IMG/VR virus record: IMGVR_UViG_3300045988_136632
DNA: 46,309 nt
From: a virus
Direction: 5' to 3' (one strand)
Shown here: positions 1-46,309 of the stretch, one piece after another
Layout of the letters: every line of letters begins with the position of its first letter
How positions within the stretch are numbered: the first letter of the stretch is position 1
Program-made: the position numbers and the translations under genes
Notes under the pieces: generated by a model
What the model was told of the DNA's origin: nothing
The model's input: only the letters and a program-made list of their open reading frames with translations
Databases searched by the model: none

Positions 1-141
1 ATAGAGTCGGTAAGACCAAGAAGGAGATAACCAAAATGCACAAAAGAGATTTTCAATATAAATCTACCCAATTTTGGCAAAATCATAATACCCCAAAGTG
101 GATTTGCACTCATTTTCAAGCTTTAGAGTATAAAATGAATA
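1..141. repeat. terminal overlap copy 1 (identical to 46169-46309)
   Basis: Base-by-base reading shows that 1-141 equals 46169-46309. Confidence 0.95.
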
Positions 142-677
142 AACTTGAAGATTTTTATTTATTATGTAATTATCCGCTTGTTGATCCCAAATTAGAGTCC
201 ATTGGAATTACCAAAGATCATCTTTTCAGATACTTGTACGAAGATTTTTATATTATATTATTAAGTATTTCAGATATTATATCTAATATTTTGAATGATA
301 TATATAAATTAAACATAAAAAAAGAGTTGCAACATTTACCATATGTACTCAACGAATTAAGTCAAAAGCATATTATTGAAAAAAATCCTACATTGCATAC
401 TACATTAAAAGAATATAACTCTTTTTTAATTCATAATAAAGAAGAAAGAAATAACAACACTCATTATGGTAAATCCCGTAATAACGTACTTAGAAAAATA
501 GAGAATCCTAACGACACCGAAAAACTGCTTGACTATGTTCTTAAAAAAAGATATGACATAGATTTAAAAAGTATATTAAAACCAACTATTATAGAAAAAA
601 TGAATAGTCAAATCATAGAAACAGATAAATTTATAACTGAGATTTTTAATAATGTACAAACGAGATCATTCAGTTAA
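36..677 (+). CDS. hypothetical protein with a HEPN-like Rx4H motif (candidate abortive-infection RNase)
   Basis: The ATG lies 5 nt after the repressor stop, with AGGAG upstream. The product is 213 aa. R138-N-N-N-T-H143 (nt 447-464) fits the HEPN R-N-x-x-x-H signature. The gene is very AT-rich compared with the structural genes. Confidence 0.6.
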   Translation: MHKRDFQYKSTQFWQNHNTPKWICTHFQALEYKMNKLEDFYLLCNYPLVDPKLESIGITKDHLFRYLYEDFYIILLSISDIISNILNDIYKLNIKKELQHLPYVLNELSQKHIIEKNPTLHTTLKEYNSFLIHNKEERNNNTHYGKSRNNVLRKIENPNDTEKLLDYVLKKRYDIDLKSILKPTIIEKMNSQIIETDKFITEIFNNVQTRSFS

Positions 678-688
678 TATTATTGCTT

Positions 689-1318
689 ATGAAAAAAATT
701 ATTTTTATAACATTATCCGCTATCTTCGTCCTGTCAGGATGTAAATCAAAAGAAGACAAAGCATTAGAAGTCATCAAAAATCAAATGTTCCAAACATTAT
801 ACGACTTTGAAAGCTACCAACCTATAGAAACAAAAATAGATAGCGCATTTTTATCAATATACACCGATTCCGCCATTATTAGACATGGATATATCATTAA
901 TGAATTATTGGAGAAAGTAAACAAAGCTTTTGATGAAATCAACGAATATAAAAATTCAATGGAAATTTGGAGCGACTCCTATTCTTCTTATGGAATAAAG
1001 AAATTCTATGAAGCAAAAGAAAAATATGGGGAAAAAATAGAAGAAGCTAAATTATATTCCAAAATGATAAATGCGGAATCTGACACAATAAAATTACTTG
1101 CGCAAAATATTACCCCAGATTTTTATGGTTGGAAAGTAGCACATAAATTTAGATGCAAAACCAAAGGGGGAAATTCCGAAATTGGTAACTATATATATTA
1201 CTTCGATAAGAAAATAAAAAATATAATTTACCAAGAAGATATCGACAACGAAGACCTAATAAGAGCAAAAGAGTTTATAAAAGAATCCTTAGAAAAAGAT
1301 ACATTGTTAAGATGGTAG
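689..1318 (+). CDS. lipoprotein (candidate superinfection-exclusion or surface-modifying protein)
   Basis: The track ORF starts at TTG 683. The ATG at 689 gives MKKIIFITLSAIFVLSGC, a signal peptide plus lipobox (L-S-G-C). It begins 11 nt after the previous stop. Confidence 0.7.
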   Translation: MKKIIFITLSAIFVLSGCKSKEDKALEVIKNQMFQTLYDFESYQPIETKIDSAFLSIYTDSAIIRHGYIINELLEKVNKAFDEINEYKNSMEIWSDSYSSYGIKKFYEAKEKYGEKIEEAKLYSKMINAESDTIKLLAQNITPDFYGWKVAHKFRCKTKGGNSEIGNYIYYFDKKIKNIIYQEDIDNEDLIRAKEFIKESLEKDTLLRW

Positions 1319-1496
1319 ATATGTTATTTCTCATTTTTTAATTAGTATTAAAAACAAAGACGATCTAAAAGTATACAGAAATTAAGTAATTATAATGTAC
1401 CCACAACTTTATCGCATATATGCGCATAGGTTGTTACTTGCTTTCAAATTAGTATTCGAAGTTTAGGTATAACAATCTTCAAACAAGAAATTGAAA

Positions 1497-2057
1497 ATGA
1501 ATAAAAAAATACGAGATAACTATGATAAATACTGTTCGTTTATTAATGAGGAAAAAATCCTTGCAAAGGATCAAATGATACTTGATGAAGATAAAGCAAG
1601 CAGACCCGATTTCAAAGAGAAAAGCATGTTGGCATACAGTAATAATATCCCAGAAGAAATAACATTTACTGTACAACAAAAGAAAAAAGATGAGGCAGAT
1701 TTTAAATTTAATCTAAGATGTAAACCTTTTTGTGATCAACCTTTGTTCAGATATGATTCTACTGGCCCTTCACATAGAAATTCCAGTACTTCTACATCAA
1801 TAGATAAACAAATGGTTACCACTCCACACTTTCATAAATTTACTTCTGACGGGAAAGAAATTGCGTACAAAACAGCAGTGTTAGAAGAAGAGAACCAAGT
1901 TAAAGCATTAAGTGATATTTCTTTATGTGTTCTTCATTTTTTTCAAGAAGCACATATAAAAGGTGAAAAATTTGAGTTAATTTCGTCCCCTGGAGAACTT
2001 TCTTTTAAAGAAGATAGCGATGCTGATCCTTTAGAAAATGTAAAATTTATAATTTAA
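1497..2057 (+). CDS. hypothetical protein, His-rich motif R-Y-D...H-R-N...P-H-F-H (first gene of a two-gene cassette)
   Basis: The track start is TTG 1491, and the first ATG is at 1497. The motif FRYDSTGPSHRN(x14)TPHFHKF spans nt 1749-1835. I cannot assign a family from memory with confidence. Confidence 0.55.
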   Translation: MNKKIRDNYDKYCSFINEEKILAKDQMILDEDKASRPDFKEKSMLAYSNNIPEEITFTVQQKKKDEADFKFNLRCKPFCDQPLFRYDSTGPSHRNSSTSTSIDKQMVTTPHFHKFTSDGKEIAYKTAVLEEENQVKALSDISLCVLHFFQEAHIKGEKFELISSPGELSFKEDSDADPLENVKFII

Positions 2058-2059
2058 AA

Positions 2060-2866
2060 ATGATGGATGAAATTGTAGAACTTATCAAAAAGACATTTTA
2101 CTATCTATGGAAAGTAAAAAGATATGGAAAAACCATAGAGATAATTACACCGTCATTTACAACTAATGACTGCTTTGTATCTGTTTTCTTAACCAAAAGA
2201 GATAAATATTATATAGTCACTGATGGAGGTTGGATTAGTGAAAAATACTATAACAATTTTTTTGATAATGATGATGAATGTTATTCAAGATTATTCTCTT
2301 ATTATAAAGAGAAATATTCAATATGTGAGACTGAATCGAAAAACCAAGTGTACTACTACAAAAGTACAGAAAACATAGAGTTGATCCCCAATATAGTCCT
2401 TGAAATGTCTACTTTTATATCAACAGTAGTAAGTTCATCTTTTATTAAATTCCAAGATAATAAAGATAAGGACTTGCAAAAAAGATTTCGCTCACAAGTA
2501 AGCACATATCTTTCCTCTAATTTTAATAAAGATGAAGTGTCTTTTAACGGATCGATTGACGAACAATATAAAGATATTAAATTCAACGCTGTCATCAAGA
2601 GAGATAATAAATTTACTTTATTTAATTATGTAACTGGTACTACCGATTTTTATTTTAGAGGGAGTATCGGTCGCTCTAATATGAATTTTCAATTAATAAA
2701 CAGAACACCTATAAAAAACAAAATATACAAACGAGTGACTGTTATTAATAATCAAGCATCTGGATACAAGATAGATAAATTAAAACAATATCTTGAGTTA
2801 ATTTCAGCAGAAGCAGAATCAGAAATCATTAATTGGAGTAACAAAAAAGATTTATTAGAGATATAA
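2060..2866 (+). CDS. hypothetical protein, N-terminus resembles DUF1828-type proteins (second gene of the cassette)
   Basis: The ATG lies 2 nt after the upstream stop. The product is 268 aa. The N-terminal pattern GKTIEIITPSFTTNDCFVSVFLTKRDKYYIVTDGGW is recalled from DUF1828/DUF1829-like prophage proteins, but this is not verified. Confidence 0.55.
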   Translation: MMDEIVELIKKTFYYLWKVKRYGKTIEIITPSFTTNDCFVSVFLTKRDKYYIVTDGGWISEKYYNNFFDNDDECYSRLFSYYKEKYSICETESKNQVYYYKSTENIELIPNIVLEMSTFISTVVSSSFIKFQDNKDKDLQKRFRSQVSTYLSSNFNKDEVSFNGSIDEQYKDIKFNAVIKRDNKFTLFNYVTGTTDFYFRGSIGRSNMNFQLINRTPIKNKIYKRVTVINNQASGYKIDKLKQYLELISAEAESEIINWSNKKDLLEI

Positions 2867-2961
2867 ATATTGCGCAAATACAACAGATGAATACCATTAA
2901 TATTCATTGGTAAATCATTGAAAAATATTGAGTGTAATCAACTAATAAAAACCTATTTTTT

Positions 2962-2986
2962 TCCAAAACGAATCTTTGGAGTTTTT
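2962..2986 (+). terminator. weak hairpin plus T-run after the two-gene cassette
   Basis: TCCAAA (2962-2967), a 7-nt loop, TTTGGA (2975-2980), then GTTTTT. The stem is AT-rich and overlaps a TCCAAAAC repeat, so it may instead be an integrase arm site. Confidence 0.3.
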
Positions 2987-3040
2987 AAAATCCGTTGTAA
3001 CATACTGAATAGCTGTCAGTTTACATATAAATAAGGTTCA

Positions 3041-3084
3041 TACTGGCAGTGTCGAGGTGATCGGTTCGAGTCCGATACTCTCCA
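3041..3084 (+). other. tRNA 3'-end fragment, candidate attP core
   Basis: T-arm ATCGG-TTCGAGT-CCGAT (3060-3076), then acceptor 3' strand ACTCTCC (3077-3083). The upstream part looks like a long variable arm (tRNA-Ser-like). No matching 5' acceptor or D-arm is present, so the tRNA is partial. It lies 135 nt upstream of the integrase. Confidence 0.65.
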
Positions 3085-3218
3085 CAGATTAAAAATCGCT
3101 CCTACAGTATGTTATAACGTACTTTCTAAATTCTTCCAAATTTCGTTTTGGATAAAAAAAAGACAAATTCTGCCACTTTTGGCATTAATAACTTGTCGAA
3201 AACTTATCCAAAACAATT

Positions 3219-4397
3219 ATGACAACTCTCAAAATTGCCGTTGTTCCAGCTAAGATGCTGAAAAGCGGAAAACACAAAATCAGAATCGCAATTGGACACA
3301 AACAAGAAACAAGATACCTTGTTACCCGATTCACTATTGACAATTTATCTTATTTCAAAGACGGGCAAGTTGTAGGAACAGCAAATGCTTCGAGTATAAA
3401 TATGAAATTAAGGAATATCCTTAATTCATATCAAGAAGCACTCGACCGAATAAATACTCAATCATATACTTGTAAACAACTCATCGAATACTTGTCAACC
3501 GTTAAACAAGGTACTACAAGTTTTAATACTGCATCCAACGAATTCATAATCAATATGGAAAATGAAGGCAGAAAAAGCACAGCCGCACTATATCGTAGAA
3601 CCTGTAATTATTTTAATGAGTTTATAAAGTATGATATTATGTTAGATGGTATTACTCCACGTACCATAAAAGATTTCGACATCTACATGAATAAGGAAAG
3701 AAATCTAAATCCTGTCACAAGAGGGACACATATGGCTCATTTAAAGGCAATAATCAATCAAGCAATACGAGATAAAAAAGCGGCTTATGAAACACATCCT
3801 TTTGAATATTACGAAAAGCCGGCAGGAAGTGTACGAGAGCTTGATATCACCGTTGAAGAAGTAAAAATGATTAGAGATTCAACCCCAAAAGAAAAATCTC
3901 TAAGAATGGCTCGTGATCTCTTTATGCTATCCTATTATCTTGGAGGTATTAATCTCATAGACCTCATGCAATTTAATTTTAAAAACAAGGATACAATTGA
4001 ATACATACGAGAAAAATCTAAGAACACTAAAAAAGGTGATAAAAAAGTAAGTCTTACTATACCGGACGAAGCAAAACCGATTATCAAAGAATGGATCAGT
4101 AAAAGTGGGAAACTTAACTTTGGGTATAAATACACATATGATAATTTCAGAAAGTATGTCACAAAAGAAATAGGGCGCCTTGCCGAAAAAATAGGTATCG
4201 AATCACACGTAGTATACTATTCAGCACGAAAGAGCTTTGTACAACACGGTTTCGAGCTTGGAATAAATCTTGAAACATTAGAATATTGTATCGGTCAAAG
4301 CATGAAAATGAATCGTCCTATTTTTAATTATGTAAAGATAATGCGAAAACACGCTGATCAAGCTATTAGAAAAATACTTGATAATCTGAAAAAATAA
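3219..4397 (+). CDS. int: tyrosine-type site-specific integrase
   Basis: 392 aa, adjacent to the tRNA-fragment attP. The N-terminal arm-binding-like region, the C-terminal YYSARKSFVQHG and the NY near the end are typical of Bacteroidota phage and CTn integrases. Confidence 0.8.
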   Translation: MTTLKIAVVPAKMLKSGKHKIRIAIGHKQETRYLVTRFTIDNLSYFKDGQVVGTANASSINMKLRNILNSYQEALDRINTQSYTCKQLIEYLSTVKQGTTSFNTASNEFIINMENEGRKSTAALYRRTCNYFNEFIKYDIMLDGITPRTIKDFDIYMNKERNLNPVTRGTHMAHLKAIINQAIRDKKAAYETHPFEYYEKPAGSVRELDITVEEVKMIRDSTPKEKSLRMARDLFMLSYYLGGINLIDLMQFNFKNKDTIEYIREKSKNTKKGDKKVSLTIPDEAKPIIKEWISKSGKLNFGYKYTYDNFRKYVTKEIGRLAEKIGIESHVVYYSARKSFVQHGFELGINLETLEYCIGQSMKMNRPIFNYVKIMRKHADQAIRKILDNLKK

Positions 4398-4451
4398 GCA
4401 GCATCCTATAAAATAAATCATAAAACGCTTGCATAATATACAAATGTATAT

Positions 4452-4459
4452 TATATTTG
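4452..4459 (+). promoter_or_regulatory. candidate Bacteroidota -7 box TATATTTG
   Basis: Matches the TAnnTTTG consensus 28 nt upstream of ATG 4488. It sits next to a 9-bp inverted repeat, ATAATATAC/GTATATTAT. Confidence 0.4.
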
Positions 4460-4487
4460 CATTGTCAAATTAAACGTATAAATAAAA

Positions 4488-4685
4488 ATGAGTAATGAAA
4501 AAGATTATCTAATTAGCTTGCTAATGAAAAACAAAGCACAACTAAAAATGCTTGATTTCATCTTCGAAAACAACAGCAATGCAGATGAAGAAAAAATGAA
4601 CGCAATCCTTGATGAGAAACTAAGAGTTGAAAAAAACATCGGGAACATTGAGAAAGCGTTAAAAGAGTTAGAAAAACAAAAGTAA
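4488..4685 (+). CDS. small coiled-coil protein
   Basis: 65 aa with a charged heptad-like sequence. A candidate promoter lies just upstream. Confidence 0.5.
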   Translation: MSNEKDYLISLLMKNKAQLKMLDFIFENNSNADEEKMNAILDEKLRVEKNIGNIEKALKELEKQK

Positions 4686-4727
4686 AAAATGCCTCCCAGC
4701 AATGGGAGGTTCTAAAAACATAAAATT

Positions 4728-5147
4728 ATGAAAACGTTAAAAGATGAATTAAAAGAGCTTCAAATACTTCTCAATAATCCGACTCCGGAAAATGAGATGT
4801 TATATCAAAAAAAGTTTATTGAAATAAAAAACAAATTTTCTTCTAAAGAAGATGCTAATATTATAGCAGACTTCATTTTAAATGGATACAAACAAATAGA
4901 CGAAGGATTAAAAGAAATAGAAAAAGAAATAAGCATACGCCAGCAATTGGAAGAAGTAAAGGAAGTTATTTCTTTATCGTACATAGCAAAGAAATATTTC
5001 GGTAAATCTCGCCAGTGGTTAAATAATCGGATTAACGGTTGTATAGTAAACGGCAAGCCATGTAAATTCAGCGAAGAAGAAAAAGAAAAATTAAATTACG
5101 CTCTTTCAGACGTAAGTAAGTTATTAGGCTCAATTCGCATTCTCTAA
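4728..5147 (+). CDS. small DNA-binding-like protein (C-terminal region resembles the DUF5053-type HTH); possible excision or regulatory factor
   Basis: 139 aa. The segment YFGKSRQWLNNRINGCIVNGKPCKFSEEEKEKLNYAL resembles a motif common in Bacteroidota mobile elements. A strong terminator follows. Confidence 0.6.
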   Translation: MKTLKDELKELQILLNNPTPENEMLYQKKFIEIKNKFSSKEDANIIADFILNGYKQIDEGLKEIEKEISIRQQLEEVKEVISLSYIAKKYFGKSRQWLNNRINGCIVNGKPCKFSEEEKEKLNYALSDVSKLLGSIRIL

Positions 5148-5166
5148 TGCGTTTAATTTGACACCG

Positions 5167-5197
5167 CCCCGCAATTGAGTCGTTGCGGGGCTTTTTA
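5167..5197 (+). terminator. rho-independent terminator ending the + strand lysogeny module
   Basis: CCCCGCAA (5167-5174), an 8-nt loop, TTGCGGGG (5183-5190), then CTTTTT. Confidence 0.75.
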
Positions 5198-5383
5198 TGC
5201 CTTTTCCCCTTCTATCTTTTCCCTAAATTCCCATAGATGCTCAATATAGGGGTGGAACGTTGGATTCTCCCAGTGCTTCGATATAGTAGCTATCGAGCTT
5301 TCAATAAAATACTCACAATCGAGTATGTTTATACATTTACTTAATTGATACGGGGAGGCCGGATACGCTTTGTTTTCAAACAT
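5195..5383 (-). CDS. hypothetical small protein downstream of the beta-helix gene
   Basis: 62-aa ORF, 39 nt after the stop of the 5423-7414 gene on the same strand. Confidence 0.35.
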   Translation of the reverse strand: MFENKAYPASPYQLSKCINILDCEYFIESSIATISKHWENPTFHPYIEHLWEFREKIEGEKA

Positions 5384-45490: not shown

Positions 45491-46198
45491 ATGGAAGCTT
45501 GGGAAAGAATAGAATTTATTATTGAAAGAGAAGGGATGAATAAGAATTCATTCAGTAATGCTATTGGCATTTCTAATAATGTGACTATAACAAGAATCAT
45601 TAATGAACATCGTACTCCTTCACGAGCTACATGTGAAAAGATAGTTAGTGCATTTCCTTCTTATAATCTTCAATGGGTACTTACTGGAGAAGGTGAAATG
45701 CTCAATAATTCGAATCCTGTACCAAAGTACAATGAAGCCGTACCCATTCAACAAGATGTAGTATATATTCCTCTTGTCAACCAATTCGCATATGCCGGAT
45801 ATCTTGATGGATATTCAGATTGCACCTATTTAGAACAGCTTCCTAAAGTTCCTTTTATTGTAGATCATGAAGGACATGGAAATTATATCGCTTTCGAAGT
45901 AAAGGGGGACAGCATGAACAACGGAACCGAAGAAAGCTATTTAGAAGGTGATAGACTGTACTGTCGTGAAATACAACCTCACCTTTGGGCTACATCTAAA
46001 TTACATCTCCGGAAATGGGATTTTGTGATAGTACATGAAGATGGAATTGTAGTAAAACGAATTATAGATCACGATGTAGAGAACCACACTATTACAATAC
46101 ATTCTTTGAATGATATGTATCCAGATCGAGTTATTGATTTGTGCGATGTTAAACAGATATTTAATGTCATAGAGTCGGTAAGACCAAGAAGGAGATAA
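45491..46198 (+). CDS. CI/LexA-like repressor (N-terminal HTH plus C-terminal S24 autopeptidase)
   Basis: The N-terminal Cro/C1-type HTH is NSFSNAIGISNNVTITRIINEHRTP. The C-terminus has VKGDSMNNG (catalytic Ser) and IVVKRI (Lys). Confidence 0.85.
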   Translation: MEAWERIEFIIEREGMNKNSFSNAIGISNNVTITRIINEHRTPSRATCEKIVSAFPSYNLQWVLTGEGEMLNNSNPVPKYNEAVPIQQDVVYIPLVNQFAYAGYLDGYSDCTYLEQLPKVPFIVDHEGHGNYIAFEVKGDSMNNGTEESYLEGDRLYCREIQPHLWATSKLHLRKWDFVIVHEDGIVVKRIIDHDVENHTITIHSLNDMYPDRVIDLCDVKQIFNVIESVRPRRR

Positions 46199-46309
46199 CC
46201 AAAATGCACAAAAGAGATTTTCAATATAAATCTACCCAATTTTGGCAAAATCATAATACCCCAAAGTGGATTTGCACTCATTTTCAAGCTTTAGAGTATA
46301 AAATGAATA
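46169..46309. repeat. terminal overlap copy 2 (identical to 1-141)
   Basis: Same as copy 1. It contains the repressor stop codon and the start of the 36-677 ORF. Confidence 0.95.

Follow-up and report, generated by a model that had tools for sequence, protein, structure and literature searches.

A conserved gene pair, very probably a PDC-M24-like accessory module, at the attachment-site end of a Bacteroidaceae prophage

What is the role of the two adjacent genes that lie between the immunity region and the phage attachment site (attP) of the virus record IMGVR_UViG_3300045988_136632? We analyzed the whole 46,309-nucleotide (nt) stretch of this IMG/VR record, called the window below, with attention to positions 1319 to 2866, which a first-pass annotation had described as an unrecognised, tightly coupled two-gene cassette and a candidate new defence or toxin-antitoxin (TA) system. 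The open reading frames and their coupling on the + strand were confirmed: gene A (1497..2057) encodes 186 amino acids (aa) from an ATG, or 188 aa from a TTG at 1491, and gene B (2060..2866) encodes 268 aa, the junction between them reading TAA-AA-ATG with a gap of 2 nt. A and B very probably form a conserved two-gene accessory module resembling PDC-M24, a published phage defence candidate. That this module is expressed in lysogens and serves in defence or exclusion is a reading that, taken as a whole, we hold with moderate confidence. New here are a Bacteroidota and phage clade that is half detected by PADLOC, the near-invariant pairing of the two genes and their exact position at the att end, together with a partner B that appears non-catalytic, a corrected set of invariant residues in A and a culturable test system.

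The neighborhoods of both genes were surveyed, and A followed by B was found in 99 of 100 loci spanning approximately 30 to 100% identity. Gene B was immediately 3' of A in all 37 metagenome and genome loci, which were examined with hidden Markov models of the two families and had gaps of -4 to +3 nt. The same was true of 62 of 63 IMG/VR loci, with gaps of -8 to +19 nt; the exception was cut by a contig end. These results demonstrate that A and B are one conserved unit, the point that an earlier proposal for a neighborhood survey had raised, and the synteny excludes chance adjacency. Among 1.84 billion representatives, clustering at 50% identity placed 270 clusters in the A family, nearly all of 180 to 215 aa and, judged by length and extent of match, almost always single-domain. 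For the B family, 72 clusters were returned, in two length classes of approximately 267 to 274 and 289 to 294 aa.

Both families matched the components of PDC-M24 when the PADLOC models were applied without a curated cut-off. Protein A aligned with PDC-M24A (E value of 4.1e-6, 25.2 bits, profile positions 10-136 of 146), and all 13 of the A-family members searched matched this model, the best at 2.1e-7. Of 27 B-family members, 14 matched PDC-M24B model PDLC04539 (best 6.8e-7) and 13 matched PDLC04540, and no other PADLOC family recurred among members of either family. In Pfam, A aligned with positions 13-133 of the 133-position profile of DUF6978 (PF22398) at an E value of 2.2e-6 and 28.4 bits, compared to a gathering cut-off of 29.6, and a score this close to the threshold over the full model makes homology very likely. 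The same profile was matched by 10 of 13 A homologues (best 2e-7), and precomputed PF22398 matches exist for five close homologues. The cassette was therefore not unrecognised, since A falls just under the threshold for DUF6978 and the families of A and B both match a candidate that had already been published. PDC-M24, a DUF6978 protein with a DUF1828-like protein after it, is cassette CAS_00098 (FAM_00129>>FAM_00065) and belongs to a set of 145 phage defence candidates, whose nomination rested on their being embedded in BREX, DISARM or type I restriction-modification (R-M) systems (Payne et al. 2024, bioRxiv 10.1101/2024.01.29.577857).

The likeness to PDC-M24 extends to gene arrangement and context. 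In both the window and its relatives, two co-directional genes stand adjacent in the order A>>B, and some relatives of the pair lie beside or inside type I R-M loci, the context by which the PDC set was nominated. The two also differ. Window B was missed by both PDC-M24B models, and its link to PDC-M24 is transitive, through other family members, so PADLOC would probably not call a system here. Protein A is approximately 40 aa longer than the 146-position PDC-M24A profile. In the partners that we inspected (those of loci L016 and L018), PDC-M24B aligned with the N-terminal half of B only, which means that the C-terminal domain may differ. Finally, the window copy is prophage cargo at the att site and is not embedded in R-M genes. 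We searched the literature for DUF6978, DUF1828, PDC-M24 and BS-TP3, a phage described below, and found no functional data; the sole comment on DUF6978 was an unreferenced remark on "putative metal-binding histidines" in a Staphylococcus aureus member.

The distribution of the pair was then considered. Close homologues (53 to 79% identity) were found in prophages of Bacteroidaceae and Phocaeicola, 3' of an S24 repressor gene and always as A then B. Distant A homologues (30 to 41% identity), from a scan of one genome per GTDB species, occurred in Flavobacterium, Maribacter, Winogradskyella, Mariniflexile, Larkinella, Chitinophagales, Prevotella and one Lachnospiraceae metagenome-assembled genome. 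The A-B loci thus span Bacteroidales, Flavobacteriia, Chitinophagia and Cytophagia plus that one Lachnospiraceae genome, a breadth that is biased because Bacteroidota sequences supplied the peptide patterns with which GTDB and IMG/VR were scanned. Prophages of human-gut Bacteroidaceae carry the pair very commonly: a single B cluster was present in approximately 22,000 indexed blocks of an assembly collection, and at least 1,000 contigs contained it. A tblastn search of plasmids with A gave no match at an E value of 0.01 or below.

The position of the pair within these prophages was established by comparison with L043, a metagenome contig that carries an integrated junction. The window and L043 are identical through nt 3086 and unrelated beyond it, where the contig continues into host sequence. 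Position 3086 is the last base of the tRNA-3'-like GGTTCGAGTCCGATACTCTCCACA and marks the right-hand crossover boundary. This comparison defined the attP core as a segment resembling the 3' end of a tRNA (T-arm and acceptor 3' strand) at 3046..3086 on the + strand, 180 nt past the cassette; no complete tRNA was found there by ARAGORN. Since the identity stops at 3086, the A-B pair is the last to be met in the prophage, and the placement of the cassette beside attP that had been proposed earlier was borne out. The same arrangement was seen elsewhere, in keeping with an att-proximal slot: A and B were the final prophage genes, with host DNA next, in L009 to L013 as well as L043, and the viral contig ended no more than 3.5 kb past B in 47 of 57 IMG/VR contigs (median of 1.86 kb). 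When the phage form was sampled (contigs L014 and L049, the window and BS-TP3), the integrase gene was 3' of A-B.

BS-TP3 (PQ571276.1) is a cultured temperate Bacteroides phage of the host Bacteroides salyersiae BG8, and it carries the A-B pair in the order repressor, HNH, gp26, gp25 (A), gp24 (B), DUF2971, integrase. Its gp25, listed as "hypothetical," is 62% identical to A, and its gp24, listed as a "DUF1828 domain-containing protein," is 76% identical to B. Upstream of A-B, the genes differed by prophage lineage: HEPN and lipoprotein genes in the window, a PtuB-like HNH gene in a second lineage, and genes for a ParA-like ATPase, RelA_SpoT and DUF4177 in a third. Such variation among upstream neighbors indicates that A-B is an autonomous two-gene module within a cargo hot spot. 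The stretch between repressor and att was itself variable across L001 to L008, L038 to L041 and L045 (the BS-TP3 locus); its contents included a PtuB-like HNH nuclease and a DUF2971/PDC-S31-like gene, and in another lineage the ParA-like ATPase, a small alarmone-synthetase-like RelA_SpoT protein and DUF4177. The prophage neighbors of A-B therefore include PtuB-like HNH, PDC-S31-like/DUF2971, RelA_SpoT and HEPN genes.

Outside phages, the pair was repeatedly found with type I R-M genes. A and B directly followed hsdM-hsdS-DUF3644(HEPN)-hsdR in L015/L028, were flanked by an HsdS/Fic pair and by Fic/T5orf172 in L016, and were followed in L024, L026 and L030 by a small Xre-type helix-turn-helix (HTH) gene, itself preceding a type I R-M system. 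By BLAST, 5 of 18 non-redundant distant loci (L016, L024, L026, L028 and L030) had adjacent type I R-M genes, a raw count within these 18 loci. Most prophage copies had no R-M genes nearby. In loci from Flavobacteriia and Chitinophagia (L023, L024, L026, L027 and L030), a third gene of approximately 100 aa began 0 to 2 nt after B; the copy examined, that of L024, encodes an Xre-type HTH protein, and in L023 the small gene is followed by a large one. A gene for a 745-aa PrimPol/DUF3987-type protein, typical of integrative elements, was 5' of A in L023, L026 and L027. This suggests that the loci with a third gene are integrative elements with defence cargo, possibly carrying a three-gene version of the system.

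Protein A has a conserved core motif, F84-RYDSTGPSHRN-x13-TPHFHKF-115 (nt 1746..1841, + strand), which contains R85, D87, G90, H93, N95, P110 and H111. The His-rich motif named by the first-pass annotation is thus present, with its coordinates moved from 1749-1835 to 1746-1841 and its spacer shortened from 14 to 13 residues. Because that annotation counted from the TTG, its H95, H113 and H115 are H93, H111 and H113 in the ATG numbering used here. Among 135 family members, P110 and H111 were conserved in 100%, H93 and K20 in 99%, N95 in 98%, R85 in 92% and D87 in 88%; G90, T109, F112, G119, A123, Y124, F148, E151, D177, P178 and F184 were conserved as well. Of the three histidines that had been put forward as catalytic, H93 and H111 were retained across the family, and H113 fell below 80% in the same 135 members. 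The invariant set K20, R85, D87, H93, N95, H111 and E151 appears enzyme-like, and it is from this pattern of conservation that an enzymatic activity is proposed, since no relative of known chemistry was found.

The predicted structure of A did not place it in a described fold. The AlphaFold model had a mean predicted local distance difference test score (pLDDT) of 87 and a predicted template modeling (TM) score, or pTM, of 0.80. From the N to the C terminus it showed two helices, a six-strand antiparallel region, the G-P-x-H-R-N loop, a beta-hairpin starting from P-H-F and three helices. The tail at residues 163-186 was predicted with low pLDDT (62 to 71), yet it contains the conserved D177, P178 and F184. 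Foldseek searches of the PDB and BFVD gave nothing significant, with best E values of 0.06 to 0.07 and TM scores no higher than 0.28; the SAS-6/XRCC4 heads, START/SRPBCC proteins, bilin reductases and lipocalins among these matches were rejected as noise (E values of at least 0.06, TM of at most 0.28). A profile search against PDB sequences gave no match. When the motifs of A were compared by eye, to our knowledge the signatures of HKD, HIT, cupin, 2H and His-Me/HNH proteins failed on spacing and predicted secondary structure jointly, as did those of GIY-YIG nucleases, H-Y-E ADP-ribosyltransferases and BECR RNases. Neither PHROGs nor NCBIfam gave an informative match for A or B, and searches of PHROGs and Pfam linked neither of the two to a family with a virion or replication function, in agreement with the earlier view that the pair has no such role.

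Gene B was modeled as two domains (pLDDT of 88.6, pTM of 0.58). The N-terminal domain, approximately residues 1-126 (nt 2060-2437, + strand), has the element order alpha-beta-beta-beta-alpha-beta-beta-alpha and resembles type III secretion chaperones, YbjN and DUF1828. Its Foldseek matches were YbjN, AmyR, SicP, Spa15, InvB, 2plg and the MotA C-terminal domain, with probabilities of 0.85 to 0.98, target TM scores of 0.42 to 0.58, E values of 0.04 to 0.35 and identities of 4 to 16%. For residues 1-126, the likeness to these chaperones, to YbjN and to the "double-wing" domain at the C terminus of T4 MotA is at fold level only, and A-B has no secretion-system context. The C-terminal domain, approximately residues 134-268 (nt 2459-2866, + strand), was predicted to have an alpha-beta-beta-beta-alpha-beta restriction-endonuclease-like fold without the D...(D/E)xK motif, and its matches to Card1, Can2, R.BspD6I, AF1548 and R2 were marginal (E values of 0.006 to 0.15, TM of at most 0.33). 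The predicted order of core elements fits that of PD-(D/E)xK nucleases, but the catalytic motif is missing: the positions in strands beta2 and beta3 are occupied by F-N-A-V and L-x-N-Y-V-T-G. The conserved residues of this domain were F175, A177, L187, N189, Y190, T192 and G193, and neither 43 family members nor the 290-aa class showed a conserved D, E or K. As far as sequence and model can indicate, B would be non-catalytic, the enzyme-like conservation being in A and not in B. A profile search of B against PDB sequences returned CNOT11 and uL18 only, which were judged spurious.

The first-pass annotation had also likened the N terminus of B to DUF1828/DUF1829 proteins, and this was upheld weakly for the first family and not for the second. 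Window B had no Pfam match, with no DUF1828 at an E value of 1 or below for the full length or 10 or below for the N-terminal domain alone. Sub-threshold DUF1828 (PF08861) matches were obtained for 6 of 24 B homologues, the best with E values of 0.0017 to 0.0022 and 19 bits versus a cut-off of 22; they sat on the N-terminal domain, and the partners from L016 and L018 gave weak ones there too. DUF1829 was not matched by any of the 24 homologues (E value of 1 or below) or by the isolated C-terminal domain (10 or below). Public records nevertheless label B homologues of 74 to 76% identity as "DUF1828 domain-containing protein." The approximately 290-aa class of B (L016, 3551-4423; P0238 to P0253) was 30% identical to window B over residues 2-126 only, and its C-terminal half could not be aligned to window B by BLAST. 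Sequence comparison thus hints that the partner protein undergoes domain swapping.

Truncated alleles of A were found in the presence of an intact B. Within the PHFH codons, at the equivalent of approximately 1828-1832 of the window, the loss of 1 nt (CACTTTCAT to CACTTCAT) truncates A in L048 (3001-3560) and L049 (835-1400), which carry the same phage with identical flanks, an additional V107F change and an intact B. The truncated product, P0008, is carried by four metagenome contigs, of which L048 and L049 are two. The loss of A while B stays intact is in line with A as the component that is costly or active. An apparent case of the reverse, B disrupted with A intact in L046, was rejected because it was due to a scaffold N-gap.

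From these results we infer lysogen expression, an anti-phage function, separate roles for A and B, contact between the two proteins and the chemistry of A, as follows. The pair in the window would be a divergent, phage-borne version of PDC-M24 and would form lysogenic-conversion cargo, placed at the very end of a temperate Bacteroidaceae phage next to att. Its orientation, co-directional with the repressor gene, suggests that it is expressed in the lysogen, which it would protect, and with it the prophage, from other phages through exclusion or abortive infection. Tentatively, A would be the effector and B its partner. As an effector enzyme, A would use a His/Arg/Asp/Asn/Lys site (K20, R85, D87, H93, N95, H111 and E151), probably for a phosphodiesterase or RNase-type activity. 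The non-catalytic B would keep A inactive or sense the trigger: its chaperone-like N-terminal domain could hold the conserved, disordered C-terminal tail of A (D177-P-L...F184), with the binding of nucleic acid a possible task of its degenerate nuclease-like C-terminal domain. A bolder version, which we consider rather doubtful, is that DUF6978 founds a structurally new enzyme class, a compact alpha+beta fold with a K-R-D-H-N-H-E site and without relatives in PDB or BFVD, and serves as the effector of a prophage immunity system widespread in gut Bacteroidaceae, with B holding A latent by capturing its tail through the type III secretion chaperone-like domain and with the dead nuclease fold of B reading the nucleic acid of the invader.

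The main rival is a plain toxin-antitoxin or addiction module in which A is the toxin and B a protein antitoxin, killing cells that lose the element and having no anti-phage role. A tightly coupled two-gene operon on mobile elements, carried as cargo at prophage ends and in integrative elements, would fit it, and so would the occurrence of A-null alleles with intact B when no verified B-null allele with intact A was found. No HTH, ribbon-helix-helix, AbrB, Phd or other toxin or antitoxin family match was obtained for A or B in Pfam, NCBIfam or PADLOC, however, and with no antitoxin-type DNA-binding domain detected in either protein, the classic TA reading offered by the first-pass annotation gained no specific support. 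Antitoxins of type II systems are typically labile; B, a two-domain protein of 268 aa, exceeds A in size and does not resemble them. The recurrent embedding beside type I R-M genes is, in addition, a signature used for predicting defence systems. We regard the plain TA explanation as unlikely, although many TA systems double as abortive-infection systems, so that it overlaps with the defence reading. Less likely still, and to our judgment improbable, is a non-defensive module that benefits the phage as an anti-restriction or counter-defence factor or as a regulator of R-M. It would explain both the carriage by phages and the placement beside type I R-M operons, but A-B lies in the repressor-proximal block, co-directional with the repressor and not among the early lytic genes, the neighbors in the same prophage slot are of defence type (HEPN, PtuB-like HNH and RelA_SpoT), and R-M genes are missing from the window phage and from the vicinity of most prophage copies. 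Nor does the near-always single-domain A family, with its enzyme-like invariant set, have the composition of a DNA mimic. The pair also shares with PrrC/RloC-type effectors the position of an accessory module inside or beside hsd operons in some relatives, but it has neither sequence or fold similarity to them nor an ABC-ATPase domain, and most copies have no adjacent R-M. Chance neighbors or decaying, functionless cargo could be supposed from the lack of a known function, the low GC content (suggesting recent acquisition) and the frameshift alleles of A. This is very improbable given adjacency in 99 of 100 loci with start and stop codons overlapping or close, the invariant residues kept in both proteins and two confidently folded models.

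Several observations weigh against the defence reading. The PDC set was explicitly called untested by those who nominated it (10.1101/2024.01.29.577857), PDC-M24 had no mention in the literature that we searched, and no experiment on it or on the A-B pair was found. Protein A falls 1.2 bits short of the Pfam gathering score for DUF6978, searches by structure and by sequence gave it no relative whose chemistry is known, and window B matched neither PDC-M24B model at an E value of 1 or below. The window phage carries no R-M, and the adjacency count has the raw character, and the taxonomic breadth the bias, given above. A different frameshift of A, in a T7 run of the Bacteroidaceae assembly GCA_024789925.1 (L002), may be a sequencing error. 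Finally, no promoter was identified for the pair.

Regulatory signals around the cassette were examined next. The spacer 5' of A (1319..1496, + strand) is 178 nt long, or 172 nt to the TTG at 1491, and contains the perfect 12-bp palindrome CGCATATATGCG at 1413-1424, exactly where it had been noted before. A perfect 12-bp palindrome arose in 13.5% of shuffles of this spacer, the window has 16 in total, and the one in question has a mismatch in the otherwise near-identical L043 and is missing from the related L042. Its role as an operator was rejected on these grounds, and the regulatory significance once attached to it was lost. The hairpin with a T-run reported downstream of B is present as an AU-rich element at 2962..2985 (+ strand), UCCAAA...UUUGGA, with a 6-bp stem at approximately 2962-2979 followed by GUUUUU. 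It is weak: a terminator scan was silent and the fold z-score for nt 2864-3000 was -1.74, leaving it no better than chance and at most a possible terminator. No Bacteroides-type -7 box (TAnnTTTG, at most one mismatch) was found 5' of A, and sigma-70 sites were no commoner there than in shuffles, so the idea that the cassette has its own promoter and terminator was rejected. In most related loci A starts approximately 30 to 40 nt after the preceding gene, which indicates that a separate regulatory region does not belong to the module. An Rfam search of 1-5200 gave only a chance snoRNA match (E value of 0.18).

Positions 1-141 of the window are repeated exactly at 46169-46309, and this 141-nt terminal overlap indicates a circularised phage assembly of approximately 46,168 bp. 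After circularisation, the + strand order is S24 repressor, HEPN gene, lipoprotein gene, the 178-nt spacer, A, B, the tRNA-3'-like segment and integrase; the structural genes are on the minus strand. The cargo block is headed by the repressor gene (45491..46198, + strand), whose product is LexA/CI-like with an HTH (Pfam Peptidase_S24, 1.8e-7, and HTH_3). This gene spans the circularisation junction, its stop codon falls within the 141-nt overlap, and the HEPN_Cthe2314-like gene (36-677, + strand; Pfam E value of 3.7e-7, exceeding the cut-off) begins 5 nt later. The lipoprotein gene (683-1318, + strand) gave only weak PHROG matches of signal-peptide type, Cor- and Rz-like ones among them. The GC content over 1-3000 is 27 to 29%, compared to 35 to 42% in the remainder of the window, and the cassette is AT-rich, as had been stated. 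The HEPN and lipoprotein genes (36..1318) share this low GC content and are neighbors of the A-B unit that lie outside it, probably as further cargo, e.g., an abortive-infection gene of RNase type and a lipoprotein for surface exclusion.

Past the attP core, a tyrosine integrase is encoded at 3219..4397 on the + strand (Pfam Phage_int_SAM_5, 5.8e-16; Phage_integrase, 0.001). A perfect 11-nt inverted repeat, GTTTTGGATAA / TTATCCAAAAC, is present at 3145-3155 and 3204-3214, just 5' of the integrase ATG at 3219, and could be an arm site for integrase or excisionase or a regulatory element of int. After the integrase gene, the + strand carries a small coiled-coil-like open reading frame (4488-4685) and a gene for a DUF5053 protein (4728-5147; Pfam E value of 1.6e-28), which likewise occurs 3' of the integrase gene in L049. 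These two products possibly have a role in excision or regulation.

Because BS-TP3 has been cultured and its host is known, a direct knockout and challenge test of the pair is feasible. The absence of a phenotype would be a useful negative for embedding-based prediction. If A-B does act in defence, one candidate nominated by its embedding, PDC-M24, would be validated and extended to a clade that the PADLOC models half detect. The dynamics of phages and hosts in the gut would then also be shaped by one more immunity determinant carried on prophages, and a new effector fold and chemistry could be revealed.

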